Part shown: piece by piece, positions 12,533 through 39,433 of the stretch
How the letters are laid out: each line of letters starts with the position of its first letter
Numbering within the stretch: the first letter of the stretch is position 1
Source: Candidatus Woesebacteria bacterium RIFCSPLOWO2_01_FULL_44_24b
Lineage (GTDB): Bacteria; Patescibacteriota; Microgenomatia; UBA8517
Direction of reading: 5' to 3'
DNA: 64,000 nt
Assembly (NCBI GenBank): GCA_001793235.1
Contig: MGHM01000004.1
Coordinates: forward strand, 34,467-98,466
Made by a program: the position numbers and the translations under genes
Notes under the pieces: generated by a model
Databases searched by the model: none
Told to the model about the DNA's origin: nothing
The model's input: only the letters and a program-made list of their open reading frames with translations

Positions 12533-12844
12533 ATGAAAAGTATGGCAGACCAGAAAGCATCCAGATGGAAGCACCCTGGTGGAAAATTAAGGCGTATGGG
12601 CCCTTCTGCACTCTCAGAGAGAGAATTGCTGGCAATAATCCTGGGATCTGGTACAAACGGCAAATCGGCTCTTAAAATTTCAGATGAGATACTGGATACA
12701 TATGCTAACTTACGAGGGCTTATGGGAGTGCCTCTCAAAGAGTTAATGAAAATTAAAGGCCTAAAGGAAGTTAAAGCAACCAAAATTGCCGCCATGTACG
12801 AAGCTAGCAGAAGAATATTAAAACACATCGAAAATGACACCTGA
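12533..12844 (+). CDS. radC: RadC N-terminal (HhH) domain only. Truncated radC lacking the JAB/MPN domain (possible pseudogene)
   Basis: ...LSERELLAIILGSGTNGKSALKISDEILDTYANLRGLMGVPLKELMKIKGLKEVKATKIAAMYEASRR matches the RadC/UPF0758 N-terminal helix-hairpin-helix. The ORF stops at 12844, 11 nt into the methyltransferase gene. No JAMM motif (HxHx7Sx2D) follows in any frame. Confidence 0.55.
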   Translation: MKSMADQKASRWKHPGGKLRRMGPSALSERELLAIILGSGTNGKSALKISDEILDTYANLRGLMGVPLKELMKIKGLKEVKATKIAAMYEASRRILKHIENDT

Positions 12845-15434
12845 CGAGTTCGAATCAAAAATACCAGTCTATAAAATCTCTGCCCAAAAGCAGCTTAATC
12901 GCCAAGTCCCTCCTGCAGCACACACTCCAATGTACATCTGGCATAAGTATTGGTCCAGAAAAACCTGGAATGTCATTGCTGAATTTGTAAAAACATATTG
13001 CCCTGAAAATGGAATCGTTTTTGATCCCTTTGCTGGTAGTGGGATAGTTGCAATGGAAGCTTTAAAAAATAAAAGACGGGCAATAGTCGCAGATATTTCC
13101 CCAATTGCTACAGAAATTACAAGGCTTACCATCAAGCCTGTTTCGGTTGAAAAGCTCCACGAAGTTTATAAAACAGTAGAAGGCAAAGTAAAAGACAAGA
13201 TTCTAGATTTATACAAAACAAAGTGTAGAAAATGTGGCAATGAATTCCCGTTGACTTGTGCTATATGGAAACAAAAAAGGCAGTCTTCTGACAAGCCCAT
13301 CTCGCGAGAGTGTATAGATATCCGGTATAAAGCATGCCCTAAATGTGGTGATAGAAAGGAAAAAGACAATCCTCCAAATTCCTTTGACTTTGAAAAACTA
13401 AAACAGATTGACGAGATGGAAATAAAAGAATGGTACCCAAAAAACAGGCTATATCACATTAACGGTAAACCATTCATGAAAAAAGAAAAATACGAATCTG
13501 TAGATGAATTATTTACTAAAAGAAATCTTCAGGCTCTTGCGTGGCTGATGGAAGCCATAGAGGAGGAAACAAATAGAGATTTAAGAGACTTTTTGAAGAT
13601 TGCTTTTACTTCAATGGTCCATTTATGTACGACCATGTGCCCAATATCTGAGGGGGGTCATTTCACTCCTTATAGTTCGGCCTGGACCCAACAAAGTTAT
13701 TGGTTCCCATCCGGGCCGTTCATGGAACAAAATGTTTGGCTTAAATTTGAAGGTTCAATGATTGGCAATCAAGGTTTGCTCAACGGAAAGAATGAGAGTA
13801 ATAAGTACTTTAAAGATGTAAAATTCGCTCAATCTTTTGAAGAAGTTGTGAATGGTGAAGCTGACATTTTTATCTACACTGGTTCGTCTTTTGATCTTAT
13901 TAAGCAAATGCGTAATGTATCTGGCAATTCTGGATGCGCGGATTATATTTTTACTGACCCACCATACGATTCTTCAATCCAATATGGGGAACTTGCCTAC
14001 ATGTGGATTTCCTGGCTTAAAAAAGATGAAGGGTACCTTGAAAAGATAGCGACAGATGAAGTTATACACAACAAACAGCAAGAAAAAAGTTTCGACACCT
14101 ACCATTCCTTACTTTCTAGGAGCTTTGAAGAAATGTATTCAGTTTTGAAACCAGATGCCTATTTGACTGTCACATTTCATAACCCTACATTTAAAGTCAG
14201 AAACGCGACAATTCGGGCAGGGGTTATTGCAGGCTTTGAACTGCAAAAAATCCACCATCAGGAATTGGCACGAGCCTCTGCAAAATCGCTTTTACAACCA
14301 TTTGGTTCCGCGCAAGGTGACTTTTACTTGCGATTTTTCAAGCCTCCACAGGACGAAAAATCGATAGAGCCTGAAGCAATAGATGAAGCTAGATTTGAAA
14401 AAATAGTAATAGACACAGCAACTCAAATTATTGCTGAGCGCGGCGAGCCCACACCGTATACAATTCTCATTAATGCGATTGACCCGGAACTTGCTAAAAG
14501 AGGATTTTTCTCTGAGCTAAAAACAGGATTAAACATTAATACTGTTCTTGAGTCGCGTTTAAACAACGAATTCACTCTAGTTAAAGCAAAATTAGGTGGA
14601 GCTGAGGGTGACCTTTGGTGGTTTAGTAATCCGTCAAATATTTCTCATCTTGAAAAAATACCCCTAAGCGAGCGCGTTGAACAAACAGTTTTGCGATTTC
14701 TTCAAAAGCAGGGAAGGTCTACTTTTACTGAAGTGTGGGATGCTGTTAGTAGAGAGTTTCCTAACTCACTCACTTCAGACCAAATGAGCATTAAAGATGC
14801 ACTCAAAGCTTACGCGAAGCCTATCTCTGGAGGCAACTGGCTCATCAAACCAAATTCCAAACAAGGAGAGATAGAGCGAGACCACACAATTATTATTGCC
14901 ACACTTGCCAAAATTGGAAAATCTCAAGGATATGATATATGGATTGGAAAAGTTGAGCAGTCTCACATAATTCCTGAGTCTATGAACGGAGGGAAAAAGT
15001 TAGGAGAACTTGTAACATACAAAAATATTAGATCACTTACAAACATACAAAACCCTGATACAGTAGAAGATATTGACTTACTTTGGATAAAAGATGACCA
15101 AATCGTTTGTGCATTCGAAATTGAATCTACTACTTCTATGACAAGTGGATTGCAAAGAGGGTCAAATATTGATAGTTCTGTACCAAAATTTCTAGTAATG
15201 CCTGAAGAAAGAGAGTCGCAATTATTTCAAAAAATGAAATCTCCGATGTTTATCGAACGCTTTCAAAACGACAGTTGGAAAGTTATATACTTTGGTGCTT
15301 TAACAGAAGAGTATATGAAGTCGAAAGGGAAAACTAATATATTTAAGTTAGAGAACAAAAAGGTCGTAGATAAGATGTCTCAAAAAACTTCTAAAAATCA
15401 ACTTGATTTGTTCAATAATAAGTTGAAAAGTTAG
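12834..15434 (+). CDS. DNA (N6-adenine/N4-cytosine) methyltransferase, 866 aa, with inserted zinc ribbon and C-terminal winged-helix plus PD-(D/E)xK-like region
   Basis: SAM motif I is HKYWSRKTWNVIAEFV...VFDPFAGSGIVAMEA at about 13000-13050, and catalytic motif IV is TDPPYDSS at about 13957-13980. A CxxC...CxxC segment (CRKCGN...CPKCGD) lies between them. The C-terminal 350 aa contain IDLLWIKDDQIVCAFEIEST. The gene is AT-richer than its neighbours. Confidence 0.75.
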   Translation: MTPDEFESKIPVYKISAQKQLNRQVPPAAHTPMYIWHKYWSRKTWNVIAEFVKTYCPENGIVFDPFAGSGIVAMEALKNKRRAIVADISPIATEITRLTIKPVSVEKLHEVYKTVEGKVKDKILDLYKTKCRKCGNEFPLTCAIWKQKRQSSDKPISRECIDIRYKACPKCGDRKEKDNPPNSFDFEKLKQIDEMEIKEWYPKNRLYHINGKPFMKKEKYESVDELFTKRNLQALAWLMEAIEEETNRDLRDFLKIAFTSMVHLCTTMCPISEGGHFTPYSSAWTQQSYWFPSGPFMEQNVWLKFEGSMIGNQGLLNGKNESNKYFKDVKFAQSFEEVVNGEADIFIYTGSSFDLIKQMRNVSGNSGCADYIFTDPPYDSSIQYGELAYMWISWLKKDEGYLEKIATDEVIHNKQQEKSFDTYHSLLSRSFEEMYSVLKPDAYLTVTFHNPTFKVRNATIRAGVIAGFELQKIHHQELARASAKSLLQPFGSAQGDFYLRFFKPPQDEKSIEPEAIDEARFEKIVIDTATQIIAERGEPTPYTILINAIDPELAKRGFFSELKTGLNINTVLESRLNNEFTLVKAKLGGAEGDLWWFSNPSNISHLEKIPLSERVEQTVLRFLQKQGRSTFTEVWDAVSREFPNSLTSDQMSIKDALKAYAKPISGGNWLIKPNSKQGEIERDHTIIIATLAKIGKSQGYDIWIGKVEQSHIIPESMNGGKKLGELVTYKNIRSLTNIQNPDTVEDIDLLWIKDDQIVCAFEIESTTSMTSGLQRGSNIDSSVPKFLVMPEERESQLFQKMKSPMFIERFQNDSWKVIYFGALTEEYMKSKGKTNIFKLENKKVVDKMSQKTSKNQLDLFNNKLKS

Positions 15435-16690
15435 GCTTCCCTAATCGCTTTACTTACAAGTTTATGATGGTAGCTTCTCGCAAAGCGGTGGGCTTCATCG
15501 CGCAGTCTTTGAACCAGTTTTTTTGCCGGACTTTCAGGGAGCTCAAACTCATGAAATTCGCCTTGGGTTTTCAAAATTAAAGTCTCCTCACGCTTGGCTA
15601 AGCCAACTACCGGCACTTCGTTGATCACCTCAAGTGCCGCCGAGAGCTGACCTTTACCACCGTCGACTATTATTAAATCCGGTTTTCCCCATGTTTCAAA
15701 CCTGTGTTTCCTTTTAATTAGTACAGATTTTAAAGACCCTACATCATCACTTTTCTTTTTGTCTGAAACTTTATAGTGCCTGTAAAGAGTCTTATCCGGC
15801 TCCCCGTCAATAAAAGTCACCATGGATGCCGTGGGATAAGTGCCTGCCAAGTGGGCCACGTCAAAACATTCGATTCTGTTTAGGTTTTTTATTTCGAAAA
15901 ATTGTACCAAAATCTTTTTTAAACTTATGAGCTCGTTCTCTCTAATATCCTCCAATAGGTTCGGGTTTTCAATATAGCCATCGTCAAGCTCCTCACGGGT
16001 GGTCGTGTAGCTTAGGGCTTCAAGTTTTCTTTTGACATGAGCAGCCTCTTCAAATTTTTCGAGTTTTGAATAATTTGTCATTTCAAGCTCTAACTGATTC
16101 ATTATTAACTTGGATTTACCGGCTAAAATTGCGTTAACCCTTCGCACATTGAGCAAATAGTCTTTTCTTAGTTCCGGATTTTTAACAACCTCGCTTGGGC
16201 ATGGATTGCAAAGCCCGATTTGACTGTAGACACACGGGCGTTTGCCGGGCTTGTGAGTACTGAACGGAAAAATTCTTCGCACAAGTTTTAATACCCGCTT
16301 GGGTGCATTACCGTTTATAAAAGGCCCATAAACATGTTTTAGCTTTTGCTTAGTTAACTCCCTTTGGCGCAAAAGTATTATGCGTGGTAACTCATCAGGA
16401 GTAATTCCAATATAGAGCGAGCTTTTGTCATCCCTCAGAGCAAAATTATATTTCGGCTCATATTTACGGACTAACTTAGCTTCAAGTAAAAGCGCCTCAA
16501 ATTCGGAGGAAACAGGAATGTAATTTAGGAATTTTGCCGTGCTCACCATCTTGGCGGTTTTCGGTGCTAGTCCGCCAGCAAAATAAGAACGAACACGGTT
16601 TTTCAGGTTTTTGGCCTTGCCTACATAAATTACCCGCCTGTGGGCATCGCGAAAAAGATAAACACCGGACAGCTCCGGAGGTAGCTTCAT
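15431..16690 (-). CDS. uvrC: excinuclease ABC subunit C, short form lacking the C-terminal (HhH)2 domain
   Basis: GIY-YIG domain (LPPELSGVYLFRDAHRRVIYVGKAKNLKNRVRSYF), a UVR/UvrB-interacting segment (EKFEEAAHVKRKLEAL) and an RNase-H-like endonuclease domain (IECFDVAHLAGTYPTASMVTF...IVDGGKGQLSAA). The start is trimmed to MKLPPE at 16690, with an ATGA overlap onto the upstream gene. Confidence 0.85.
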   Translation of the reverse strand: MKLPPELSGVYLFRDAHRRVIYVGKAKNLKNRVRSYFAGGLAPKTAKMVSTAKFLNYIPVSSEFEALLLEAKLVRKYEPKYNFALRDDKSSLYIGITPDELPRIILLRQRELTKQKLKHVYGPFINGNAPKRVLKLVRRIFPFSTHKPGKRPCVYSQIGLCNPCPSEVVKNPELRKDYLLNVRRVNAILAGKSKLIMNQLELEMTNYSKLEKFEEAAHVKRKLEALSYTTTREELDDGYIENPNLLEDIRENELISLKKILVQFFEIKNLNRIECFDVAHLAGTYPTASMVTFIDGEPDKTLYRHYKVSDKKKSDDVGSLKSVLIKRKHRFETWGKPDLIIVDGGKGQLSAALEVINEVPVVGLAKREETLILKTQGEFHEFELPESPAKKLVQRLRDEAHRFARSYHHKLVSKAIREA

Positions 16691-18453
16691 TTTCTTCTCC
16701 TTATATAAATAACGACACCCGCTACACAAAAAACAACAGTTAAGCTGATTGCAATAACGTCCCTAGCTAGAGCAGGGTTTTTGTTGGTGGCAAACTCCTC
16801 GCGTGCATTTCCGACGTAAAGCTCGGCCGTTTCTGGCATCGAACTTCCCAAAAAGCCATAGGGGACAGTAAACTCAAGAATTCTTTTTTCATAAGGTAAA
16901 AGAGTTGTGAGATTGCTTTCATATTTTTTTGCACTGTCAAAAAAAAGTTCCACCTTCTGGTCATACAAGGCCGCGGGCCCGGGATTTTCAATTTCAGCCA
17001 CAAGCACCAGTCCTTGAAAAGGTAGGCTCCCCCGCTGTGAGATTGAGATTGCCGGAATCGAGCTTGTATTTTGAGGCAACTCTCCCAGAGCAACGAATAC
17101 ATCCTTTTGAGGGTTAGCTCCCAATTTGTACGAGCCGGGGGGGATGGGGAGCTCGGGGCTCACGCCATGCATAACAAAGTTTATGTGCCGCATGTCGAGC
17201 TTTGTGAAATAGTCAACTCCGCCGGTTGTCTTGCCCCAAGTCGGGTCTACCGGTACCCAGAGGTCACGCTCGCTATCCCAATATTCGGGCCACGCATGAA
17301 GCACATCGGCAACAAGGGCTAAAGGTCTTAAACTCGTGTTGTCTGTATATGCATAACCATTCACTTCGCGGGCCGGTATTCCCTTCGCGCGCGCAAGAGC
17401 AATAAAAAGGTCAGTGAATTCGGTGCAAATCGATTCGGCAGGGTTTTCGAGCGCCGACAGAGCCCCTAACCTTTTGCTCCCCGTAGTGACTTTCTCATAG
17501 TTATAATTCAAGGTATTGACGACGTAATCATAAATTTCTTTCGGACTAGCCAAGCCATTGGCAATTTCTACAACCTTTGGATCTTCTACTTGCCAATATA
17601 CACTTCCTTCAAGAGGGCTGTTTGATGCAAATTGCCTCCATGGAGACGCGAAAACCTGTACTACACCGATTGCGCGAACGTCGAGTCTCTCGCGTGCGTG
17701 AAGATTATAAACCGCGAGCCAATTGCCGTCAGGGTCCACTAATATGTTATCCGGTTTGGGGCTAACAGACTGATAGAAAATTTTTTGAAAAGAAGTATCC
17801 GGAGGGAGCGCAACTTCCATTTCAGTCGGAAGTGCCAGGGGGTTTTGAAGATGGTAGGTAAGATCAAAAGAGAATACCTGAAATTTACCAAACGCAGCAC
17901 TTACGCCCAAAGTAACAACTGCCTTATCAAAATAATAAGTCGTAAATCCCCCCGTACCAAGTTCATTGTCAGGAGGCGGCGACATGTATGAATGCGCACC
18001 AAAACTGTTCGGAACCTTAAGCCTGATTAAGTAAGTATCGAATGTTTCTGTCGCGAGCTTGGGTATTGAAACTTCAGTTACATCTCCGGAAACTCTGACC
18101 ACAGACGCATCCAAATACTCTATCGTAAAATTTTGCGAATTACCCTCTCCCACAATAGACTCGTCAAAAAGAACTTTAAGTTTTACTACATCACCTTTAG
18201 TGAGCTCGACCTCGAGTTCCCCATCTTCGGTAAAGGCACGCGCCTGACTAACTTCGGCGCCCTTCAAAGAAAGAGTGAAATCTGTAGCATGGACCTCGGT
18301 TGTTGCATTGGTAATGGAAATTTCCTGAGTGACTTTGGTTGCACTTCCGTCAACTTCATAAGTGGCCTCACCCGAAACCAAAAAGTCATCAGTGGCATAT
18401 GCAATTTTTGGGGATAGTATCAGTAAAAAAAATACAGCAATAAATTTCTTCAT
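16687..18453 (-). CDS. secreted transglutaminase-like domain protein with C-terminal TM anchor
   Basis: Signal peptide, a long beta-rich N-terminal region, then a transglutaminase core Cys-His-Asp triad (ICTEFTDLFIALARAKGIPAREVNGY...HAWPEYW...D) and a terminal hydrophobic helix followed by RRRK. Confidence 0.7.
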   Translation of the reverse strand: MKKFIAVFFLLILSPKIAYATDDFLVSGEATYEVDGSATKVTQEISITNATTEVHATDFTLSLKGAEVSQARAFTEDGELEVELTKGDVVKLKVLFDESIVGEGNSQNFTIEYLDASVVRVSGDVTEVSIPKLATETFDTYLIRLKVPNSFGAHSYMSPPPDNELGTGGFTTYYFDKAVVTLGVSAAFGKFQVFSFDLTYHLQNPLALPTEMEVALPPDTSFQKIFYQSVSPKPDNILVDPDGNWLAVYNLHARERLDVRAIGVVQVFASPWRQFASNSPLEGSVYWQVEDPKVVEIANGLASPKEIYDYVVNTLNYNYEKVTTGSKRLGALSALENPAESICTEFTDLFIALARAKGIPAREVNGYAYTDNTSLRPLALVADVLHAWPEYWDSERDLWVPVDPTWGKTTGGVDYFTKLDMRHINFVMHGVSPELPIPPGSYKLGANPQKDVFVALGELPQNTSSIPAISISQRGSLPFQGLVLVAEIENPGPAALYDQKVELFFDSAKKYESNLTTLLPYEKRILEFTVPYGFLGSSMPETAELYVGNAREEFATNKNPALARDVIAISLTVVFCVAGVVIYIRRRK

Positions 18454-18464
18454 GGCCTAGTTTA

Positions 18465-21365
18465 CTACAAAGTGTGCTCGAGAAACTTTCCGGTGTGTGT
18501 TTTTGCATTTTTAATTTCATTTGGCTCCCCCTCAGCGACTACTCGCCCGCCAAGCTCCCCACCTTCGGGGCCCAGTTCAATTAGCCAATCAGCATTTTTA
18601 ATGACATCTAAGTTGTGCTCTATGACAATTACCGTGTTGCCACGCTCGACCAGAATCTTCAAGACCGCAACCAACTTTTCCAGATCTGCAAAATGAAGAC
18701 CGGTCGTTGGCTCGTCCAAAATATAAACCGTTTTTCCTGTAGCTTTTTTAGATAACTCAGTCGCAAGTTTAACTCGCTGGGCCTCGCCTCCCGAGAGAGT
18801 CGTTGCTGCTTGCCCAAGCTCCATGTAGTCAAGCCCGACGGCCTTCAAGGTCTCAAGCTTTGCAACTATATTTTTATAAACATGGAAAAACTCAAGTGCT
18901 TCCTCAACAGTCATTGCAAGAACCTCGGCTATACTTTTTCCTTTATATGTCACTTCCAAGGTCTGACTACCGTAGCGCGCACCGTGGCAAACTTCACAAT
19001 CAACCCAAATGTCCGGCATAAACTGCATCTCAATTTTGATTTTGCCCTGGCCTTCACAGACTTCGCAGCGCCCACCTTTGACGTTAAAGCTGAATCTGCC
19101 TTTTTTAAAGCCCAAGGTTTTGGCTTCACGAGTAAGCGCAAATACATCGCGAATTAAATCAAACACTTTTGTATAAGTCGCGGGGTTACTTCTCGGGGTT
19201 CGCCCAATTGGCGCCTGATCAATAAGGACCACTTTATCTATTAATTCATCCCCTTCAATTCGTGTAAATTCACCCGCCTGCTCCCTGTGATATTTATTAA
19301 GAGATTTAGCGAGGGCGTGGTAAAGGGTCTCAACCACAAGGGTTGACTTGCCGGATCCAGAAACTCCAGTCACCGCTATGAACTTGCCCAAGGGGAAATG
19401 TACATCTATATTTTTAAGATTAAACTGACTTGCACCAAAAAGACCTAAGTTTCCGCCTCCGTTTTGGGAAACTTTAGGAAAGCGAATTACGCGCCTTCCA
19501 GATAAATACTTGCCGGTGAGAGACTCACCGCCTTTAATCTCCTCCAGAGTCCCTTGGGCAACCACACCACCACCGTGTTTACCAGCTCCCGGGCCAAAGT
19601 CAAAAACATAGTCGGCAGAGCTTATTACATCACGGTCATGCTCCACCACCACAACGGTATTCCCCAAATCTCTGAGCTTTTTTAATGTAGCAATCAAAAG
19701 TTCGTTATCCCGGGGATGAAGGCCAATAGTGGGCTCATCCAAGACATACAAAACTCCCGTAAGGCCTGAGCCAATTTGGCTGGCCAGGCGTATGCGAGCA
19801 GCCTCCCCTCCAGAAAGCGTATTAGCCGCGCGAGAGACAGTCAAATAGTCAAGCCCGACGTTAATGAGAAAATTAAGTCTGGCGATAATTTCTTTGAGTA
19901 CCAGGCCTGCAATCTCACTCTCACGATTTGACAGGATTTTTCCGTCTTTTAGCTCCTTTGCCCAAACCAATGTGTCTTTCACAGCTATATCAGTAACCTC
20001 ACTTATATTCTGGCCATTGATTGTGATACTCAAAGCTTCTTTTTTAAGCCTCGCTCCGTGGCAGTCCTCACAAACTACCTCGGTCATGTATTTTTCAATG
20101 CCACTTTTAATGTAGTCCGAGTCACTTGTGTGGTAGCGCCGCTCAAGCTCAGTCAAAACCCCCGGCCAGGCTTCAGTTATATAAGTCATCCTGCCAAAAC
20201 GATTTGTGCCCTCTACCCGGTAAGTCTTGCCACTCGTTCCTTCCAACAAAATCTTTTTCTGATCTGGAGTATATTTTTTAATTGCCATATCCGGGTCAAT
20301 GCCGTTTTCCTGTAGTGCCGCCAAAATGAGTCTCGAAAGCCAAGTATCGTGTTCAAAAGTGGAAGCATACGGAATTACACCGCCTTCAAGCACAGAAAGC
20401 TCAGGCGCAAGTACGCGAGCTGGATCCACTTTCAAGATTCTCCCCAGCCCTGCGCAAGTTGGGCAAGCTCCATGGGGAGAGTTGAAAGAGAAAGTTCTTG
20501 GCTCAAGCTCGGGAAGGCTGATGTTATCAACTGGACAAGCAAATTTTTCTGAAAAAAGGTGGTCCTCAAAAACTTTTGGGTATTCCGGCATTTCGAAGCC
20601 GCTATCAAATATCTTACTCACGACCGCCGAGCCATCCGAAAGCTTGAGAGCCTGCTCGATGCCGTCATTAACACGAGTGCTAAGGCTTTTGACAAATAGC
20701 TCATCTTTTAAGTCATTTGTCGAAGCTGAAATTCTGTCGATCACCACATCTATCGAGTGCTTATTGGTTTTGATTAACACGAAATCTTCATCCAAATCGT
20801 GAATTTCTCCATCTAACCGGACACGCCTGTAACCTTTGGACTTCAAGTTTGCAAAAAGCGCACTGAATTCCCCTTTTCTGTCTTTGATAATGGGAGCAAA
20901 GATCATAAACCTGGCTTGTTTTCCTGCCCCTCCCATAATTAAATCCATCACAGCACCTGCTATTTGCTCAGTAGTCTGGCTTGAAATTTCACGGCCACAA
21001 ATCGGGCAATGCGGGTGACCCGCTCGCGCCCAGAGTAGCCGCAGATAGTCATAAATCTCAGTAACCGTTCCAACTGTCGAGCGCGGATTGTGAGAAGTAG
21101 TTTTTTGGTCAATGGAGATGGCGGGCGAGAGCCCTTCAATCAAGTCAACATCAGGTTTGCCCATAATCCCCAAAAATTGCCTGGCATAAGTGGACAGGGA
21201 CTCAACGTAGCGTCTTTGCCCTTCGGCGTAAATCGTGTCAAAAGCTAAGGAACTTTTGCCACTACCCGAGACTCCAGTAAAAACAACCAGCTTGTTTTTG
21301 GGAATATCAATATCAATATTTTTGAGGTTATGCTGTCTAGCCCCCCGGACTTTAATATAATCCAT
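18465..21365 (-). CDS. uvrA: excinuclease ABC subunit A
   Basis: Two ABC ATPase modules with zinc fingers. The canonical N-terminus MDYIKVRGARQHNLKNIDIDIPKNKLVVFTGVSGSGKSSL begins at the second ATG (21363-21365). The first ATG (21377) overlaps the TATAAT -10 box. Confidence 0.95.
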   Translation of the reverse strand: MDYIKVRGARQHNLKNIDIDIPKNKLVVFTGVSGSGKSSLAFDTIYAEGQRRYVESLSTYARQFLGIMGKPDVDLIEGLSPAISIDQKTTSHNPRSTVGTVTEIYDYLRLLWARAGHPHCPICGREISSQTTEQIAGAVMDLIMGGAGKQARFMIFAPIIKDRKGEFSALFANLKSKGYRRVRLDGEIHDLDEDFVLIKTNKHSIDVVIDRISASTNDLKDELFVKSLSTRVNDGIEQALKLSDGSAVVSKIFDSGFEMPEYPKVFEDHLFSEKFACPVDNISLPELEPRTFSFNSPHGACPTCAGLGRILKVDPARVLAPELSVLEGGVIPYASTFEHDTWLSRLILAALQENGIDPDMAIKKYTPDQKKILLEGTSGKTYRVEGTNRFGRMTYITEAWPGVLTELERRYHTSDSDYIKSGIEKYMTEVVCEDCHGARLKKEALSITINGQNISEVTDIAVKDTLVWAKELKDGKILSNRESEIAGLVLKEIIARLNFLINVGLDYLTVSRAANTLSGGEAARIRLASQIGSGLTGVLYVLDEPTIGLHPRDNELLIATLKKLRDLGNTVVVVEHDRDVISSADYVFDFGPGAGKHGGGVVAQGTLEEIKGGESLTGKYLSGRRVIRFPKVSQNGGGNLGLFGASQFNLKNIDVHFPLGKFIAVTGVSGSGKSTLVVETLYHALAKSLNKYHREQAGEFTRIEGDELIDKVVLIDQAPIGRTPRSNPATYTKVFDLIRDVFALTREAKTLGFKKGRFSFNVKGGRCEVCEGQGKIKIEMQFMPDIWVDCEVCHGARYGSQTLEVTYKGKSIAEVLAMTVEEALEFFHVYKNIVAKLETLKAVGLDYMELGQAATTLSGGEAQRVKLATELSKKATGKTVYILDEPTTGLHFADLEKLVAVLKILVERGNTVIVIEHNLDVIKNADWLIELGPEGGELGGRVVAEGEPNEIKNAKTHTGKFLEHTL

Positions 21366-21410
21366 ACGACCTATCATTATACCAGATATTTGTTCGGGTT
21401 TTGTAAGTAG
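21366..21410 (-). promoter_or_regulatory. uvrA promoter with extended -10 (TGGTATAAT) and an upstream conserved motif shared with the uvrB/lexA region (candidate SOS operator)
   Basis: In gene orientation the region reads CTACTTACAAAACCCGAACAAATATCTGGTATAATGATAGGTCGTATG. The same arrangement (CTACTAACATTACCCGAAC...TGTATAATGAT) is found upstream of uvrB. Confidence 0.5.
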
Positions 21411-21425
21411 GTTGATTCGAATAAT

Positions 21426-21728
21426 CTAACTTGAAGCAAAGGATTTTTCGAGTTTATTCACTTTTTCCCGCAATTCTTCAAACTCCTCCCTTGAGACTGA
21501 TGTAGACTTTATCAGCTTTATTTTTCCATTAACAATTCTGTCGTTAACAGTAATCTTTTCATCTAAATCTTTCACCTGATCGCTTAAACCATCCACTTTC
21601 TTTTCTAGTTTATCAAGCCTGGCATTGCTTTCATCAAACATTTTTTGCATACCGGAAAGTATTGTGTCTACGGCTTCCATTAGCATAACTTCATTAACTA
21701 ACTTAGAGTCTCCATTTCCTTTTGGCAT
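21426..21728 (-). CDS. coiled-coil hypothetical protein (100 aa)
   Basis: ORF with charged heptad-like repeats (KLEKKVDGLSDQVKDLDEKI). No domain was recognised. Confidence 0.4.
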   Translation of the reverse strand: MPKGNGDSKLVNEVMLMEAVDTILSGMQKMFDESNARLDKLEKKVDGLSDQVKDLDEKITVNDRIVNGKIKLIKSTSVSREEFEELREKVNKLEKSFASS

Positions 21729-21809: not shown

Positions 21810-23135
21810 TTATTCTTCATCCAGGAGGCCCCATCTGCTCAGAACTTCATTCTTAAGCTGCCTAACTCTCTCGTGACCTATCCCATATCTCTGGCCAATT
21901 TCTTTTAAAGTTGTTTTGCTGGACGCGGCAGATAATTCATAATATTCCACAATAACATTGTAACTTCTTTCGTCAGTTGCTCTAAGATTTTCAAGGGCGT
22001 TATCATTATCAGCAAGATAACTAACCAATCTTCGCCACATTTCCCAGCGCCCAATTGGCAAATCCTCGGGAGGTAACTTTTCACCCACTATAAATCCATT
22101 CCTGAATTCATCCCATTGTATTCTATCTGTCTCAGCTCGTTTTACCCTCTCTAATTTATTCCGAAGTGCTTTAGCCCGATCGACATATCTGCTGGCAACT
22201 ATGTCTGTGAATCCAAGATTCAACAATACTGCGTTTGAGCCATTCTGAACTGAATGATAAGAAATACCAAGTTCTTCTGCTATCTTAACCATTGAATTAG
22301 ATTTAGACGAGAGAAACATAGCGTCGGCAACATCGATTTCTGGGAATTCATATTTTCTTAGTTCTGCTAGAAACAGCTTTTTTTCTGGATCTTTTAAAGC
22401 CTCAACAACAAACTTTCTTTTGTTTTCATGCTCTTCAGTTATTATCCCTTCGTCATAGTACACACTGTTTCTGTCTCTTTGAACTCTTATTTCGATACCC
22501 TTTTCAGACAATATTTTTTTTGCAGCTTGAGAAACATGCGTCGTCATAATAGAAGGGGGGACCTGAATAACCTCTAATTCTGGAGCCTGGTCAAGTATAC
22601 GCTCTAAACTTGACTGACTGAGAAGTGGTGGTTTTGAAATATGAAGTATCCTTGTCTTCCTGTTTATTGCGGCCAAATCTTCAAGCTCTGATACCTGTAA
22701 ATACCCCTTGCTTGCAAGATATCTATCATCAGGTTTGTCACTTTTGTCAATTTTAAGCCTGCTACGACGTCGTGGCTGACTATGAGTGGGACCGAAATCT
22801 TCTTGCGATTCTTCTGCGTGTTCGATGCCAAGTAAGTTCTCAACCTCACGTTTATTAGTTTGAACTTGTTTTCTAACAAATGCCAATATCGTATTGTCTC
22901 CTAAGTCTTTTTGAGGAGTTGTCAATAAGTCAGACAATTTTTGGTCTTGGTCAAGTTCATCCCAAAATGCTTTAATTGACCCATCCGAAGTCACAAAATC
23001 ATAGACTCCTCTAACTGCTTTTAACATAATGTCATTTGCCTCATCGCCAAGTTCCGGTTCCAAAACCCTGCAAAGATTTTGGTAAAACTCAGATTCAGGT
23101 AATTGATAGTTTAAGTTGCGTTCAGTCGATGTCAT
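21810..23135 (-). CDS. hypothetical protein with two C-terminal sigma-70-region-4-like HTH motifs. It is a single-gene insertion within the uvrB 3' end
   Basis: 441 aa. The C-terminal half contains NSMVKIAEELGISYHSVQN and TLKEIGQRYGIGHERVRQLKNEVLSRW, both region-4-like. The N-terminal 240 aa are unassigned. The ATG overlaps the uvrB stop (ATGA). Confidence 0.55.
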   Translation of the reverse strand: MTSTERNLNYQLPESEFYQNLCRVLEPELGDEANDIMLKAVRGVYDFVTSDGSIKAFWDELDQDQKLSDLLTTPQKDLGDNTILAFVRKQVQTNKREVENLLGIEHAEESQEDFGPTHSQPRRRSRLKIDKSDKPDDRYLASKGYLQVSELEDLAAINRKTRILHISKPPLLSQSSLERILDQAPELEVIQVPPSIMTTHVSQAAKKILSEKGIEIRVQRDRNSVYYDEGIITEEHENKRKFVVEALKDPEKKLFLAELRKYEFPEIDVADAMFLSSKSNSMVKIAEELGISYHSVQNGSNAVLLNLGFTDIVASRYVDRAKALRNKLERVKRAETDRIQWDEFRNGFIVGEKLPPEDLPIGRWEMWRRLVSYLADNDNALENLRATDERSYNVIVEYYELSAASSKTTLKEIGQRYGIGHERVRQLKNEVLSRWGLLDEE

Positions 23136-25144
23136 TCTAATTCTCGTACTTTATCCCTAATTTCAATTGCCAACTCGAAGTTAAGAGCCTCGGCGGCGAG
23201 TTTCATCTCCCGCCTTAACTTTCTCGCCAGCCTTTTTTTGTCCATCGGGGTAAGAGCATCAAGTTCAATATCGGGAAGCCTTGCATAAGTAATATCCCGG
23301 TCCTCAAGGGCCAAACTGGCAGCTTCTACATCGCGGTCAACAAGTTTTTCGCGGATTGGCTTTTCAATCGGCGTTGGAACGATGCCAAGTTTTTTATTCA
23401 TAGCAAGCTGATACTCTCGCCTGCGATCAACTTCGTCTAAAGCCCTCTTCATGGAGCCTGTGATACTGTCGGCATACAAAATCACTTTACCTTCAATGTG
23501 GCGCGCGGCACGGCCCATTGTCTGAATCAAGGTGACATCGCTTCGCAAAAAACCCTCTTTGTCGGCATCCAAAATCGCGACCAAAGAAACCTCTGGCAAA
23601 TCAAGGCCTTCACGAAGCAAATTTATCCCCACCAAACAGTCATATTTGCCGCTTCTTAAGTCATCCAGAATGTCAGTTCTATCAAGAGTGTGCACATCCG
23701 AGTGCAGATAGGCTACATCAATACCCTGCTCTTTCAGGTATTCCGCCAGGTCCTCGGCAGTGCGCTTGGTCAAAGTAGTCACTAAAGTTCGCTGGCCTTT
23801 TAATTTTTTGAGTTTAATTTCTTCAATTACATCAGAAACTTGAGTTTTAATCGGGCGCACTTCCACCTCCGGGTCGGGAATCCCAGTTGGCCGTACAAGC
23901 TGCTCAACAATATTTTTCTTCCCGGACATAGTCTTTTCCCACTCTGCCGGTGTTGCCGAAGTCGCAATAAATCTCGGGATTCTACGCATAAATTCTTCAA
24001 AAGTTAATGGACGGTTGTCGTAGGCAGCAGGAAGCCTAAAGCCATAATCAATTAAAGTTTTCTTCCGTGACAAATCCCCCGCATACATGCCACGAACTTG
24101 GGGGAAAGAAATGTGCGACTCATCGGCTATGACGAGCCATTTATTTCCATAAGCCTCCTGAAAGTAGTCCAAGAGGCTGTGGGGGGCATCTCCGGGAGCA
24201 CGGCCGTCAAAGTATCTGGAGTAATTTTCAATACCTTTGACATAGCCGATTTCCTCAATCATCTCAAGGTCATAAGTAACTTTTTGCTTTATTCTATTGG
24301 CCTCAAGAATCTTGCCCTGGCTCTCAAAAAACCCAACTCGCTCCGTGAGGTCAGAACGGATTTTTTCAAAAACCTGCTTGTTGTTTGTTGGATCTGTAAT
24401 AAAGTGCTTAGAGGGAAAAAGCATAAAGGCGGTGGACAGCTTTTCAAGAAGCTTGCCCGAAATCGGATCAATTATATTCACAGTCTTAATTTTGCCTTCT
24501 GCAATCTCTAAGTCCACACCTTGATCCTGATAGGAAGGGAAAATTGAAATAGTGTCACCACGGACGCGAAAAGTGCCTCTATGGAAGCCAAACTCACCGC
24601 GCTCATATTGAAGGTCAACGAGCCTGTCAATTATTTGCTCACGGGTGATGCGCATTCCGGGGGCAAACTCAAAAACGAATTTGCCGTACTCTTTTGGTGA
24701 ACCGATATTATAAATACAGCTGACCGAGGCTACAACTATCACATCTTTTCTGGTTAAAATATTTGCCGTTGCCTCAAGCCTGAGCTTATCTATTAGCTCA
24801 TTTATATCTGAATCTTTTTCAATATACGTGTCTGTTGAGGGAATGTAGGCTTCTGGTTGATAGTAATCATAGTAGCTCACGAAATAGCTCACAGCATTTT
24901 CCGGGAAAAAATCCCTGAACTCCTGATAAAGCTGGGCGGCCAGAGTTTTGTTGTGAGAAATTATTAAAGTCGGCATCTGAAGCTTCTCGATAGTATTGGC
25001 AACCGTAAAAGTTTTTCCAGAACCGGTTACACCAAGAAGAACTTGATACTTCTCGTTATTTTTTACTCGCTCAACAAGTGCATCAACAGCTTTCTTCTGA
25101 TCACGCACCGGCGAGAATCTTGATTTAATCTTGAATTTCCCCAT
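23132..25144 (-). CDS. uvrB: excinuclease ABC subunit B
   Basis: Contains helicase motifs (GVTGSGKTF), a beta-hairpin region and the C-terminal UvrC-interaction helix ...FELAIEIRDKVRELE*. Confidence 0.95.
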   Translation of the reverse strand: MGKFKIKSRFSPVRDQKKAVDALVERVKNNEKYQVLLGVTGSGKTFTVANTIEKLQMPTLIISHNKTLAAQLYQEFRDFFPENAVSYFVSYYDYYQPEAYIPSTDTYIEKDSDINELIDKLRLEATANILTRKDVIVVASVSCIYNIGSPKEYGKFVFEFAPGMRITREQIIDRLVDLQYERGEFGFHRGTFRVRGDTISIFPSYQDQGVDLEIAEGKIKTVNIIDPISGKLLEKLSTAFMLFPSKHFITDPTNNKQVFEKIRSDLTERVGFFESQGKILEANRIKQKVTYDLEMIEEIGYVKGIENYSRYFDGRAPGDAPHSLLDYFQEAYGNKWLVIADESHISFPQVRGMYAGDLSRKKTLIDYGFRLPAAYDNRPLTFEEFMRRIPRFIATSATPAEWEKTMSGKKNIVEQLVRPTGIPDPEVEVRPIKTQVSDVIEEIKLKKLKGQRTLVTTLTKRTAEDLAEYLKEQGIDVAYLHSDVHTLDRTDILDDLRSGKYDCLVGINLLREGLDLPEVSLVAILDADKEGFLRSDVTLIQTMGRAARHIEGKVILYADSITGSMKRALDEVDRRREYQLAMNKKLGIVPTPIEKPIREKLVDRDVEAASLALEDRDITYARLPDIELDALTPMDKKRLARKLRREMKLAAEALNFELAIEIRDKVRELE

Positions 25145-25145
25145 G

Positions 25146-25223
25146 AAGCATCATTATACAATATTTGCTACTTGACACGTTCGGGTAATGTTAGTAGTAT
25201 GATTTTACAAACAAAATACAAAC
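25146..25223. promoter_or_regulatory. divergent uvrB / lexA control region with an extended -10 for uvrB, a TTGACA-17-TAGTAT promoter for lexA and a conserved candidate operator
   Basis: Plus strand reads ATCATTATACAATATTTGCTACTTGACACGTTCGGGTAATGTTAGTAG. The 19-mer GTTCGGGTAATGTTAGTAG (25179-25197) sits in the lexA promoter spacer and is near-identical to the 19-mer upstream of uvrA. There is an imperfect inverted repeat CTACTTGACA-N11-TGTTAGTAG. Confidence 0.5.
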
Positions 25224-25850
25224 ATGGCACCCATACTTTACAGACGTCAGAGACAAATTGTTGATTTTATACAGCAATATATTCAAGCAAATAGTACAGC
25301 CCCAACACTTCGCCAAATCGCCGATGCCATCGGAGTATCTTCACTCGCCACAGTCCATGAGCACCTTGCATCTTTGCAATATAAAGGCATAATCAAGCGA
25401 AAATCCGGGAAAAACCGATCCATTGAATTGGTAGACAAAACTCTCGACTTTCATATGGAAAAGGCAGTAGAGGTTCCAATTCTTGGCTTCATTGCCGCAG
25501 GTAAACCAATTGAGCCATACACAGACCCGCATGCAAAAATATTTATTGGCCCGGCATTTATATCGAGTAAAAAACGTGTTTATGTACTTCAAGTCCGCGG
25601 GGAAAGTATGATCGAGGAGCAAATCCGCGACGGGGATTATGTTGTTGTTGAAGAAACCGAGGAAGCCAGAAACGGCCAGATAGTGGTGGCGCTTTTAGAT
25701 AACGGCATGGCAACCTTAAAGCGCTTTTTCAAAGAAGCCACCAGAATCCGCCTTGAGCCAGCAAACGCTACAATGGCCCCGATTTTCGTCAAAAACGTCA
25801 CCATTCAAGGTAAAGTCGTCGGGCTTATCCGAAAATACCACTCAACCTAG
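25224..25850 (+). CDS. lexA: LexA repressor (S24 peptidase)
   Basis: N-terminal winged HTH, Ala-Gly cleavage site (IAAGKPIEP), catalytic Ser (VRGESM) and Lys (ATLKRF). Confidence 0.85.
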   Translation: MAPILYRRQRQIVDFIQQYIQANSTAPTLRQIADAIGVSSLATVHEHLASLQYKGIIKRKSGKNRSIELVDKTLDFHMEKAVEVPILGFIAAGKPIEPYTDPHAKIFIGPAFISSKKRVYVLQVRGESMIEEQIRDGDYVVVEETEEARNGQIVVALLDNGMATLKRFFKEATRIRLEPANATMAPIFVKNVTIQGKVVGLIRKYHST

Positions 25851-34219: not shown

Positions 34220-34617
34220 TTTTGTTTATAAGCAGCCAGGAAGCTTCTTAATTTATCATGAAAGCTTCCCTTGTGATGCCGGGTGTGGGGAAGTAGTGCG
34301 CCTGAGAAGTTTTTCGGGATATGCGCAAGCTCATGAAAGAGGACTTCAACTTGTTTGTGTTTCGGAAGCGGATCGAATTTTTCAGAGATTACCTCAATAC
34401 AATAGCTTGCAGGTATGCCAAGAGTTTCCTGCCAAATCCTGCCCATGCCCCAGATCCTTGCATATGCCCTTGCAGTCGAATAGGTGGAGCGCACACAATA
34501 AACCTTGTCCAAGTCAATCCAGTTTAAGTCAACGCTTTTAACTAAATTTGTCAATTCTTTCTTTACGTCCTCGGCTTTTTCCCAGGAGACAGGTTTGTAG
34601 GCTCGTCTACGGCGCAT
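34216..34617 (-). CDS. putative zinc metallopeptidase (HExxH, SprT/DUF45-like)
   Basis: 133 aa with FHELAHIP followed by two downstream His residues (HTRHH). Confidence 0.4.
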   Translation of the reverse strand: MRRRRAYKPVSWEKAEDVKKELTNLVKSVDLNWIDLDKVYCVRSTYSTARAYARIWGMGRIWQETLGIPASYCIEVISEKFDPLPKHKQVEVLFHELAHIPKNFSGALLPHTRHHKGSFHDKLRSFLAAYKQK

Positions 34618-35104
34618 GGTACGTCATTTTAACATGGCAATAAGCCACAGCAAGCGCGTCCGCGGCATTGTCAAAGTGAGTTTTCTTTTTGGCTTGACTT
34701 CTTATTGATGCGCCGAAAATTGAGCGCAAAGCTTGCTGCATCTGCTTTTTGTCAGAGCGACCATTGCCGGAAACAACCTTTTTTATAGTTCCCGGTGCGT
34801 ACTCAACTATTGGAAGCTTAAAATCCGCCGCTGCCAAAAACATCACTCCCTGAGCCTGCCCTACGGCTATTGCAGTTTTTGCGTTCGCCGCAAAAAAGAC
34901 TTTCTCAATTGCCATAACATCGGGCTCGCCACTCCGTATAATTTCCCGTACATGGTCATAAATCATACTCAGCCGCTCAGCGTGGGTGAAGCTTTTTTTG
35001 GTCTCAATAAGATCAAACTCAAGAGGTATAAGGCCGCGGCCGTTGGCCTCAAGTAATGAGTAGCCAGTAGTGGCAGTTCCCGGGTCAATTCCAAGGACAA
35101 TCAT
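34607..35104 (-). CDS. ruvC: crossover junction endodeoxyribonuclease RuvC
   Basis: Begins MIVLGIDPGTATTGYSLLE and has the RuvC acidic catalytic residues. Confidence 0.85.
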   Translation of the reverse strand: MIVLGIDPGTATTGYSLLEANGRGLIPLEFDLIETKKSFTHAERLSMIYDHVREIIRSGEPDVMAIEKVFFAANAKTAIAVGQAQGVMFLAAADFKLPIVEYAPGTIKKVVSGNGRSDKKQMQQALRSIFGASIRSQAKKKTHFDNAADALAVAYCHVKMTYHAP

Positions 35105-35962: not shown

Positions 35963-38900
35963 TTATTGCGAAGCAACAAACTTGTTTATTGTGCTAGAGA
36001 GTTTTTCTTCCCAAGCCACACCAAAAGGTACTGCAATTTTGTCTCCCGAGCTGCCTTCAAAAATCAAACTCACATGCTGCTCCCCCGGGTGAGCCTTTAA
36101 AATTGTCTTCAACTTAACCAGCTTTTGGTTATCAACTCCTTTGGGAATAGTAATAAAAAAATTACCGTTACCGTTAAGTGCCGCTTGAGTTTCAACTACA
36201 TCCACCAAAATCGATAATTGCTCATCTCTTTGATCAATTTTCCCTGTTAAAAGAACACCAGAGTATCTTGGCCAAATGTCGCGGGTCACGGCATAAAGCT
36301 TGGGGAAAATTACTACGTCAATGCTACCGGTTTCATCTTTAACTGTAACAAAAGCCATCTCAGCCGCAGACTTGCGGGTTACTACTTTTCTGAACTCCGT
36401 TACTACGCCAGCTATCTTGACCACACCGCCTTCAACCTCCTTAATATCGTCAACTCGATGGGTTCGATAAGTAATAAGCTCGCCCAAAACCTCTTCTATA
36501 GGCCGAGCTGAGAGTGAAAACCCCAAGAGCTCCTTTTCAAAGTTCTGGAGTTCATCTTCAGTAAATTCTTTGGTTCCAGAAATCTGGGCGACTTCAATAG
36601 AGTCTTCAGGCTCCACCTCGTCACCGTCAAAAAGCCCTTGCTGGCCATTGTCTACTCCTGGTTTCACTTTTTCCCTTATTTCCTCCATTACTTCCATGAC
36701 AGAAGCTCGAGGGCCAAAAGGCAACATTGCTCCAACTTTAACAAGGCTCTCGAGAACTTTTTTGTTGACGCGGCGCGAGTCCACCCGGGCAAAAAAGTCC
36801 GCTAAAGACATAAATTTACCATTATCCCGTACTTCAAGAATTGCCTCAATTGCAGCCTTGCCAACGTTTTTAATTGCCGAAAGCCCAAATCGGATTGCTT
36901 TTTTATCCAAAGATTCCTCGTCGCCCACAATTTTAAACCCTACAGCGCTTTCGTTAATGTCCGGCGGCAAGATCTTAATGCCCATTCGTCTGCACTCACT
37001 AATGGCAGAGGTAATTTTATCCGCATCTCCGCTCTCGGCGGTCATCAAAGCAGCCATATACTCAACAGCATAATTCGCCTTCATGTACGCAGTTTGGTAA
37101 GCCACTATTCCGTAACTCGCGGCATGTGCTTTGTTAAAGCCGTAGGCTTGAAAAGGCTCAAAAAGCTTCCAAAGCATTTCGGCAAAATTCTTGGTTTGAC
37201 CATTTGCAACTATCCCCGCTTCAAATTTTTCTTTTTGCGCGGCCATTTCCTCCGGAATTTTCTTTCCAACCGCTTTCCTGAATTTATCCGCTTCTTCCCA
37301 AGAGTAACCGGCCAAATCCAAAGCACAAAAAAGCAAATCGTCCTGGTAAACCAAAAGACCATAAGAGGCCCCCAAAAACTTCTCCATTCTTGGATCTAAA
37401 AATTTAACTTTGGAAGGGTTATGTTTTCGTTCAATATATTCTGGAATGGTTTGCATAGGACCAGGTCGATACAGGGCAACCATGGCCATTAGGTCTTCCA
37501 CTCGCTCCGGCTTCAGCTCTATGAGCCACTTGGTCATTCCGGAGCTGGCAAGCTGAAAGACACCCATAGTTTCACCACGCCCAAGCATTTCATAAGTCTT
37601 TCTATCATCAAGTGGAATATTCCTTAAATCCACTCTTTTGCCATGGACTTCCTCGACTATATCCACACATGAGCCTAAAATTGACAGGTTTCTAATGCCT
37701 AAAACATCAAATTTAATAAGCCCAACATCCTCGCAGGCATGCATTTCATATTGGGTAATAATTTTGTCCCCCTTGGGATCCTTTTGAATCGGTGTGAAAT
37801 CTGTTAACGTTGTAGGGGAAACAACAACACCAGCGGCATGAACAGATACGTGCCTGGCGCTCCCTTCAACTTGGTGCGCCAAGTCAAGAATTTTCTTAGT
37901 ATCAGGGTCTCTTTCATACAATGTTTTAAGCTCCGGGCTTGTGTCCAGGGCTTTAGGCACGTCAATGGGAAAACCTTGTTTCGGCGGAGGAATTAGCTTC
38001 GAAATCCGGTCCCCCACAGCATACTCATATCCTAATACCCGGGCCACATCCCGTGCTGCGGCCCGCGCGAGCATGCGCCCAAAAGTACAAATCTGGGCAA
38101 CCCTGTCATGGCCATATTTTTCACCAATATAATTAATTATTTCATCTCTTCTATTGTCAGAGACATCAAAATCGATGTCGGGTGGGCTTGGCCTGAAAGG
38201 ATTTAAAAAGCGCTCAAAAGGCAAATAATATTTTAATGGGTCAACTGTCGTTATCCCCAAAACATAAGAGACCAAAGAGCCCGCGGCCGAACCTCTGGTG
38301 TTTGTTACAATCCCCTGGGAATTTGCCCAATTGACCATATCCATCATAATTAGAAAATAGGGCGCGTATCCTTTGTCACATATGATTTTAAGCTCATGCT
38401 CAAGGCGCTCTTTTTCTTCTTTACCTGCTTTGCCAAATTTTTCCTTAAGCCTCTCGTGTGCTGTTTTTCTTAAGTATTCATCATCAGCTAAACCTTGAGG
38501 GACTTCATATTTTGGAAAAAACCATTTGCCCAAAGTGCTAATTTCAAGGTTGCATTTATTTGCAATCTTGACTGTATTTTTGATGGCCTCGGGAATGTCG
38601 GGGAAAAGCCCGGCCATTTCTTCAGGAGACTTAACGTAATACTCAGGCGTATCAATAAAGCGGATTCTTTTTGTATCAGCCACATCTTTGCCGGTTGCCA
38701 CACAAACAAGTGCATCCTGGGCATCGGCATCTTCTTTATTCAAATAATGAGCGTCATTGGTGGCAACAACGGCAATTCCAAGTTCCCCCGAAAGTTTCAT
38801 AACTCCTTCGTTTATTTTTTTTTCATAAGCTACCATTTTTTCCTGCTCCTCACGGATTTCAGCAGATATTGAAGTACTAATGTGTTCATGATACTTGTGC

Positions 38901-39433
38901 CTTTGGACCTCAAGGTAATAATCGTCACCAAACACATCCACAAACCACTGGGCCGTTTTTTTTGCGCCATCATAGTCATTCTTAATAAAATGCGAGGCGA
39001 GCTCGCCGGCGGGGCATGCAGAAGTGCAAATTAGGCCTTTGGAGTATTTTGCCAGCGCATCATTACTTATTCTTGGCCTGTAGTAGTAACCTTCCAGATG
39101 CGCAATTGAGGTAATTTTCATCAGATTTTTGTAGCCTTCTTCATTTTTAGCCAAAAGAAGTAAATGAAAATTCTGAAACCTTTCTCCCTTTTCCGGCCGG
39201 ATTTTGTGGTCCTCCCGGCAAGTGTAGGCTTCCATTCCCAGAATGGGTTTAACACCGTCTTTGTGGCACTGCTTATAAAATTCAATCGCTCCATACATTG
39301 CCCCATGGTCGGTAACGGCAACCGTATCCATGCCCATTTCTTTTATACGGGTTGTCAGCTTTTTGGTTTTAGTTAAGCCATCCAAAAGGCTGTATTCGGT
39401 GTGCAAATGAAGATGAACAAACTTACCTGCCAT
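35963..39433 (-). CDS. dnaE: DNA polymerase III subunit alpha
   Basis: PHP domain (HLHLHTEYSLLDG), palm, fingers and OB domains. Total length 1156 aa. Confidence 0.95.
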   Translation of the reverse strand: MAGKFVHLHLHTEYSLLDGLTKTKKLTTRIKEMGMDTVAVTDHGAMYGAIEFYKQCHKDGVKPILGMEAYTCREDHKIRPEKGERFQNFHLLLLAKNEEGYKNLMKITSIAHLEGYYYRPRISNDALAKYSKGLICTSACPAGELASHFIKNDYDGAKKTAQWFVDVFGDDYYLEVQRHKYHEHISTSISAEIREEQEKMVAYEKKINEGVMKLSGELGIAVVATNDAHYLNKEDADAQDALVCVATGKDVADTKRIRFIDTPEYYVKSPEEMAGLFPDIPEAIKNTVKIANKCNLEISTLGKWFFPKYEVPQGLADDEYLRKTAHERLKEKFGKAGKEEKERLEHELKIICDKGYAPYFLIMMDMVNWANSQGIVTNTRGSAAGSLVSYVLGITTVDPLKYYLPFERFLNPFRPSPPDIDFDVSDNRRDEIINYIGEKYGHDRVAQICTFGRMLARAAARDVARVLGYEYAVGDRISKLIPPPKQGFPIDVPKALDTSPELKTLYERDPDTKKILDLAHQVEGSARHVSVHAAGVVVSPTTLTDFTPIQKDPKGDKIITQYEMHACEDVGLIKFDVLGIRNLSILGSCVDIVEEVHGKRVDLRNIPLDDRKTYEMLGRGETMGVFQLASSGMTKWLIELKPERVEDLMAMVALYRPGPMQTIPEYIERKHNPSKVKFLDPRMEKFLGASYGLLVYQDDLLFCALDLAGYSWEEADKFRKAVGKKIPEEMAAQKEKFEAGIVANGQTKNFAEMLWKLFEPFQAYGFNKAHAASYGIVAYQTAYMKANYAVEYMAALMTAESGDADKITSAISECRRMGIKILPPDINESAVGFKIVGDEESLDKKAIRFGLSAIKNVGKAAIEAILEVRDNGKFMSLADFFARVDSRRVNKKVLESLVKVGAMLPFGPRASVMEVMEEIREKVKPGVDNGQQGLFDGDEVEPEDSIEVAQISGTKEFTEDELQNFEKELLGFSLSARPIEEVLGELITYRTHRVDDIKEVEGGVVKIAGVVTEFRKVVTRKSAAEMAFVTVKDETGSIDVVIFPKLYAVTRDIWPRYSGVLLTGKIDQRDEQLSILVDVVETQAALNGNGNFFITIPKGVDNQKLVKLKTILKAHPGEQHVSLIFEGSSGDKIAVPFGVAWEEKLSSTINKFVASQ

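Follow-up and report, generated by a model that had tools for sequence, protein, structure and literature searches.

How is lexA controlled in an uncultivated Woesebacteria genome in which it shares a spacer of only 79 bp with uvrB, and do the two back-to-back promoters in that spacer answer to the same regulator? The window, a 64,000-nucleotide stretch of the genome of Candidatus Woesebacteria bacterium RIFCSPLOWO2_01_FULL_44_24b, encodes LexA at 25224..25850 (+) and UvrB at 23132..25144 (-; Pfam UvrB_inter, UvrB, UVR, and Helicase_C). This divergent arrangement, described in the original prediction, is kept in most of the 80 loci of our ortholog set, all of which encode a LexA 64–87% identical to that of the window.

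The 208-aa lexA product was identified by Pfam and structure alignment. It contains both expected domains (PF01726 LexA_DNA_bind, 9.5e-18; PF00717 Peptidase_S24, 2.4e-30) and aligns over its full length with the solved LexA structures 3k2z (2.4e-31) and 1jhh. The cleavage site, Ala92-Gly93, and the catalytic dyad, Ser128 (in GESM) and Lys166 (in TLKRF), align with the equivalent positions of solved E. coli LexA (7b5g), and cleavage-site and catalytic residues are invariant across 24 homologues. Moreover, the recognition helix VSSLATVHEHL is unchanged in 80/80 LexA orthologues, and the whole protein matches the LexA of Candidatus Woesebacteria bacterium RIFCSPHIGHO2_01_FULL_44_21 (Microgenomates, Patescibacteria) at 100% identity. 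Judged from its sequence, the encoded LexA is intact and typical.

The lexA promoter is formed by a -35 TTGACA (25172..25177, +), a 17-nt gap, and a -10 TAGTAT (25195..25200, +), as predicted; an independent promoter scan, which gives 25172-25200 10/12 matches, agrees with the sequence check. The 19-mer GTTCGGGTAATGTTAGTAG at 25179-25197 occupies this gap, again as predicted. Within the 19-mer we delimit a predicted LexA operator, TTCGGGTAATGTTAGTA (25180..25196, +), from an ortholog matrix, conservation, and repeat spacing. Its first unit reads TTCGGGT and its second, which starts 11 bp further on, TTAGTAG, so that the block fills the promoter spacer and contributes the first two bases of the -10.

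This architecture recurs throughout the clade. TTGACA-NN-TTCGGGTWWTRTTNGTA is found upstream of lexA in identical register in 51/80 loci, and in those 51 the block TTCGGGTWWTRTTNGTA fills the 17-nt spacer, its terminal TA beginning the -10; the -10 position in orthologs reads TATAAC, TATTTT, or TATATT. TTGACA stands 2 nt ahead of the operator in 51/51 aligned orthologs. Because the alignment was anchored on TTGAC, the invariance of these five columns follows from selection of the sequences. The unanchored columns 5-16 carry 0.4–2.1 bits each (mostly >1.2) and are strongly conserved. Only the -35 hexamer and the block are conserved. Recurrence of the exact architecture in 51/80 orthologous loci supports the earlier view that the 19-mer sits in the classic position for autorepression, and the 19-mer block is indeed conserved in the same register in orthologous lexA upstream regions. 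In its strict form the repeat described below is present in 51/80 lexA upstream regions as compared to 0.2% of random 150-nt windows, and in its relaxed form in 65/80 (0.2–1.4% of random windows, from strict to relaxed).

The predicted operator element is a direct repeat, TTYGG-N6-TTYGG, with an 11-bp period of about one helical turn. The pattern TTYGK-N6-TTYGK is 144-fold enriched in uvrB-lexA spacers, and N6 alone is enriched among spacings from N3 to N10. Sites that do not overlap a -10 have the consensus TTYGGRT-WWTG-TTYGGRT, a pair of equal units at the 11-bp period, and are found in both orientations; at the lexA promoter, unit 2 is bent towards TTNGTA and doubles as the start of the -10.

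With a scoring matrix built from 50 orthologous sites, the window excluded, 25180-25196 scores 25.6 bits and a site upstream of uvrA, at 21393-21409, 22.4 bits, while the next best score in the window is 11.3. Matches at 11.3 bits and below, at 51817-51833 and 51854-51870, were dismissed because they lie inside a LysM-domain coding sequence. Within the window, the motif is confined to lexA/uvrB and uvrA: the matrix finds no operator-like site at ruvC (34607-35104), dnaE (35963-39433), or the gene for a PolX-type polymerase with a PHP domain (48252-50021). Throughout the flanking DNA of the 80 loci (~800 kb), the maximum score away from lexA, uvrA, and uvrB is 15.7 bits. No recA gene was found in the window or in any of the 80 loci.

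Several features of lexA upstream regions lie outside this pattern. The window lexA has a 17-nt leader without a Shine-Dalgarno sequence. This leader is absent from the lexA of most orthologs, and in at least 16 orthologs the operator starts 26–27 nt ahead of the ATG, pointing to a leaderless lexA. TACAAACA occurs twice in the window leader, 11 nt apart (25206-25224, +); read on the minus strand, the leader contains TTTGT-N6-TTTGT, which matches the operator matrix weakly (7.0 bits) and may represent either a duplication of 11 bp or a degenerate site in reverse orientation. In the distant loci L055-L080 (e.g., L057, L059, L064, and L069), labelled Pacebacteria/Paceibacterota and encoding LexA at ~65% identity, the lexA upstream region carries at least three TTCGG-like units in tandem with an 11-bp period, often followed downstream by an inverted CCCGAA, as in TTCGGGAAATCTACGCCCGAAG. 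The form of these arrays suggests multi-dimer or mixed-orientation operators. The lexA upstream regions of L054, L058, and L068 (Blackburnbacteria-type) contain a variant operator, TTGACATACGGGTTTTGTTGGGGTA, in which ACGGG ... TGGGG replaces TTCGG ... TTYGG, although the recognition helix of their LexA is identical.

The copy of the 19-mer reported near uvrA proved to be real. GTTCGGGTTTTGTAAGTAG at 21392-21410, 15 nt upstream of the annotated uvrA ATG, is the only other match in the window at ≤3 mismatches; since the chance expectation is 0.01 and 0/100 shuffles gave two matches, we regard the repetition as genuine. It contains a second predicted LexA operator, TTCGGGTTTTGTAAGTA (21393..21409, +, antisense to uvrA), identified by its matrix score and its recurrence in orthologs. 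The site, TTCGGGT TTTG TAAGTAG, extends from about -24 to about -40 in the uvrA promoter and covers the -35 region. The claim that only the right half-site is intact in this copy was wrong, because the symmetry is that of a direct repeat and not of a palindrome; both direct-repeat units are kept, at 22.4 bits. On the uvrA strand, the sequence reads TACTTACAAAACCCGAA-caaatatc-TGGTATAAT-gataggtcgt-ATG(GATTAT...), where TGGTATAAT (21376..21384, -) is an extended -10. Given that this -10 overlaps the annotated ATG and that orthologs begin MDQFIRVRGA or MEQYIRVRGA, the true start of uvrA is probably the ATG at 21365 (Met5, MDYIKVRGA), in which case its mRNA appears to be leaderless or nearly so.

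Behind this second operator, uvrA (18465-21377), a transglutaminase-like gene (16687-18453), and uvrC (15431-16729), all on the minus strand and assigned from ORFs and Pfam, follow one another across an 11-nt gap and then an overlap, a tight packing that points to a probable operon (15431..21377, -). The closest relative, L001, has an identical uvrA operator in the same place, and L024, L030, and L035 have sites of 17–25 bits upstream of uvrA. The CCCGAA end of the operator lies 8–9 nt upstream of the uvrA -10 in the window, L001, L030, and L035, and 18 nt upstream in L024. Sites of ≥8 bits were found in 8 of the roughly 40 orthologs with room for a uvrA promoter (~0.5 expected), and none in the 12 loci where uvrA directly follows uvrB (gap <70 nt). 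The window has two extra genes between uvrB and uvrA, the latter having its own operator, as in L001; separation by a 441-aa gene and a 100-aa coiled-coil ORF (21426-21728) is peculiar to the window genome among the 80 loci. Next to uvrC, in the window's lowest-GC stretch (0.39), an 866-aa protein is encoded at 12834-15434 (+). Apart from a short N-terminal stretch that matches a DNA methylase (N6_N4_Mtase), the protein has no significant Pfam hit, and the gene may belong to a restriction-modification or mobile island.

On the other side of the lexA promoter, the uvrB -10 TATAAT (25153..25158, -) ends 8 nt before the ATG at 25144, and because of this short distance the uvrB mRNA also appears to be leaderless or nearly so. 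An extended -10 had been proposed here; the hexamer is perfect (25158-25153), although the TG lies one position closer than in the canonical TGn. Nor is the 19-mer just upstream of this -10, as had been stated: the operator edge is 21 nt upstream of the hexamer, which places the shared operator roughly between -34 and -50 in the uvrB promoter. That promoter also contains the lexA -35, which couples the two promoters physically.

The comparative data make uvrB a likely member of the LexA regulon in this clade. Orthologs with longer spacers usually have a second operator next to the uvrB -10. Such uvrB-proximal second sites of ≥8 bits number 11 in 5.4 kb (~0.4 expected), in both orientations, and uvrB-proximal sites are present in about 20 orthologs. 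The window spacer contains no uvrB-proximal operator. A reading with considerable weight, though somewhat short of probable, is accordingly that the shared site controls lexA only and that uvrB in the window genome has escaped LexA, with the uvrA copy remaining functional. This reading draws on the missing uvrB-proximal operator that many orthologs have, and on the shared site lying upstream of the -35 position where the -10 is a perfect TATAAT; with such a promoter, repression from -34 to -50 may be weak or absent. However, six loci of different subclades that have a single operator (the window, L015, L042, L060, L012, and L036) keep it 20–22 nt ahead of the uvrB -10 despite differences in the intervening sequence, and the coupling of the two promoters through the lexA -35 also speaks against escape. 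We consider it close to evenly balanced that repression from the single window site extends to uvrB, and partial co-repression through the shared site is possible.

Any control of uvrB would probably extend to the gene for a 441-aa protein whose C-terminal domain is a sigma-70 region 4 (21810..23135, -; Pfam PF04545). Since the start of this gene and the stop of uvrB share 4 nt, it is probably carried on the uvrB transcript. The 441-aa protein has no homologue in the 80 loci, and a search of 5.8 billion proteins returned only 100%-identical copies (full-length and one shorter form).

From what can be observed directly, namely the anatomy, conservation, and repeat spacing of the site, the genes it accompanies (lexA, uvrA, and uvrB), and an intact LexA, we infer that LexA is the binder and that binding represses. 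We hold it highly probable that 25180-25196 is the self-repression site of the LexA encoded immediately downstream. LexA is the likely binder because the motif is found most constantly in the lexA promoter and otherwise at DNA-repair genes, and because the invariant recognition helix agrees with the invariant TTCGG core. It is improbable, by contrast, that the block serves some other regulator, or acts as a special promoter element for nucleotide-excision-repair genes, with LexA binding elsewhere or not at all. The motif occurs only near lexA, uvrA, and uvrB in the 80 loci, a distribution that any dedicated factor would fit; yet the constancy of the lexA promoter site is a hallmark of autoregulation, the match between helix and core favors LexA itself, and direct-repeat LexA motifs are documented. 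Furthermore, the other LexA boxes tested have at least two mismatches among their 8–11 specified bases in the intergenic region, the alphaproteobacterial box excepted, and a core promoter element would not be expected at varying promoter positions and in both orientations, as the site is.

Under autorepression by LexA, the mechanism would run as follows. LexA would bind two tandem TTYGG-type half-sites whose starts are 11 bp apart and, seated between the -35 and the -10, would exclude RNA polymerase, so that lexA would repress itself; steric autorepression is suggested because the operator takes up the whole spacer and runs into the start of the -10. Upon DNA damage, RecA-stimulated self-cleavage of LexA at Ala92-Gly93, through Ser128 and Lys166, would free the promoter. 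Through the operator at 21393-21409, LexA would also control uvrA and probably the two genes behind it, the transglutaminase-like gene and uvrC. The uvrB promoter, which fires back-to-back from the spacer it shares with lexA, might be partially co-repressed.

The original prediction had instead cast the site as an imperfect inverted repeat at 25168-25197 and a target for a repressor dimer. On that reading, a LexA dimer would sit on it symmetrically, in the manner of E. coli or Bacillus. The repeat, CTACTTGACA-N11-TGTTAGTAG, is literally present, with 8/9 complementary pairs and a one-base bulge, and the majority of characterised LexA boxes are palindromic (PMC8565304), but it is neither above chance nor conserved. 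Perfect 5-bp inverted arms at this spacing number 75 in the window (~71 expected), and a repeat search with a 6-nt seed detected no inverted repeat. Aligned ortholog lexA upstream regions (n=50) have a median of 3/9 pairs, with none reaching 7. The outer arm pairs at 1.42/5 in orthologs, as compared to 1.51 ± 0.07 for shuffled partners; the left arm CTACT (25168-25172) carries <0.7 bits per column outside the -35 hexamer, shows no covariation with the right arm, and is missing at the uvrA site and the uvrB-proximal sites. The palindrome is thus specific to the window genome, at chance level, and effectively refuted by the comparative data, and a palindromic operator is very improbable.

We scanned metagenome and viral contigs with the exact operator, TTCGGGTTTTGTTAGTA, as the pattern. 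Among 119 matches in metagenome contigs, most are chance occurrences in unrelated DNA, and 17 have a -35 in register, of which 11 are lexA promoters. In L117, a match that lacks an in-register -35 lies 22 nt upstream of a uvrB gene. In viral contigs the pattern matched 46 times, never in a promoter-like context, and so gives no sign of phage operator use.

Several of the remaining promoter-like metagenome matches directly precede small, free-standing nuclease-like genes, LAGLIDADG-like and HNH genes among them, that adjoin tRNA genes or lie between them (L160:1242-1258, L198:158-174, L163:11112-11128, L095:484-500, L179:2652-2668, and L172:2152-2168). At these sites the -35 is in register, a -10 TAGTAT arises from the 3′ end of the operator, and an ATG follows 6–9 nt on. 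The genes encode LAGLIDADG_3 proteins in L160 and L179, an HNH protein in L172, and members of an unassigned 'LY.CEGAK' family in L095, L163, and L198. These matches may represent LexA-controlled selfish endonucleases in candidate-phyla-radiation bacteria. Such control of homing-endonuclease-like genes between tRNA genes, which lie outside the window, is the only part of this work that is possibly new.

A wider synthesis is speculative and, in our estimate, rather doubtful as a whole: a LexA regulon centred on nucleotide excision repair (uvrB, uvrA-uvrC) with compact, mostly leaderless promoters, in which one 17-bp direct-repeat operator, set between two overlapping back-to-back promoters, would switch lexA, uvrB, and the translationally coupled sigma-70 region 4 orphan, and which would also take in nuclease genes in candidate-phyla-radiation relatives. 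If it were true, selfish endonucleases in those relatives would be inducible by DNA damage. What the analysis provides is a well-supported predicted operator with the correct repeat structure in an uncultivated Woesebacteria genome, the correction of a tempting palindrome model, and nucleotide-excision-repair genes as likely SOS targets in this genome. Knowledge of LexA itself is unchanged, as autorepression, clade-specific motifs, and direct-repeat boxes were already established.

In E. coli, lexA is autorepressed through an operator that overlaps its promoter, and uvrA and uvrB are under LexA control. The window system follows the same logic, but the E. coli box, CTGT-N8-ACAG, is a palindrome of unrelated sequence (best spacer match 3/8 mismatches), and lexA does not lie divergently beside uvrB in E. 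coli. The Gram-positive Cheo box, GAAC-N4-GTTC, has a half-site, GTTCG, that shares the TTCG core with TTCGG; it is, however, inverted where the window site is tandem, and its best spacer match also has 3/8 mismatches. The helix-3 region of the window LexA, SSLATVHEHL, presumably resembles that of Bacillus LexA. None of the E. coli, Cheo, Xanthomonadales, Verrucomicrobia, cyanobacterial, Geobacter, Bdellovibrio, or Bacteroidetes boxes comes within one mismatch in the spacer.

LexA motifs differ by clade, and direct repeats are among them (PMC7739468; PMC8565304). The comparison with known LexA boxes that the original prediction proposed yielded one box within one mismatch, the alphaproteobacterial GTTC-N7-GTTC (PMC8565304), which has the same 11-bp period and a TTC core and to which the window site matches at 7/8 specified bases. 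Yet its leading G (position -1) is present in only 12/51 orthologs and its unit-2 C (+13) in 11/51, and the ortholog block extends 3′ as TTCGGGT, the GGGT extension being foreign to the alphaproteobacterial motif. The Balneolaeota LexA direct repeat, TTACACATATTTTWTACATA, which was found by motif discovery on lexA promoters and is experimentally bound (PMC7739468), is unrelated in sequence to the window site, and its regulon is centred on translesion polymerases. The predicted window operator is structurally closest to the alphaproteobacterial direct repeats, yet has a different half-site and belongs to a distant LexA lineage.

A LexA-binding motif and SOS network of the Patescibacteria were reportedly described by Sanchez-Osuna, Barbe and Erill (Environ Microbiol 2017, 19:3465). 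That study is one of three references given for the evolution of direct-repeat recognition by LexA (PMC7739468). It concerns the same superphylum and the same regulator, and the direct-repeat architecture for which it is cited fits the window site. Likened by this cited architecture rather than by consensus sequence, the window operator most likely corresponds to the Patescibacteria LexA motif of 2017.
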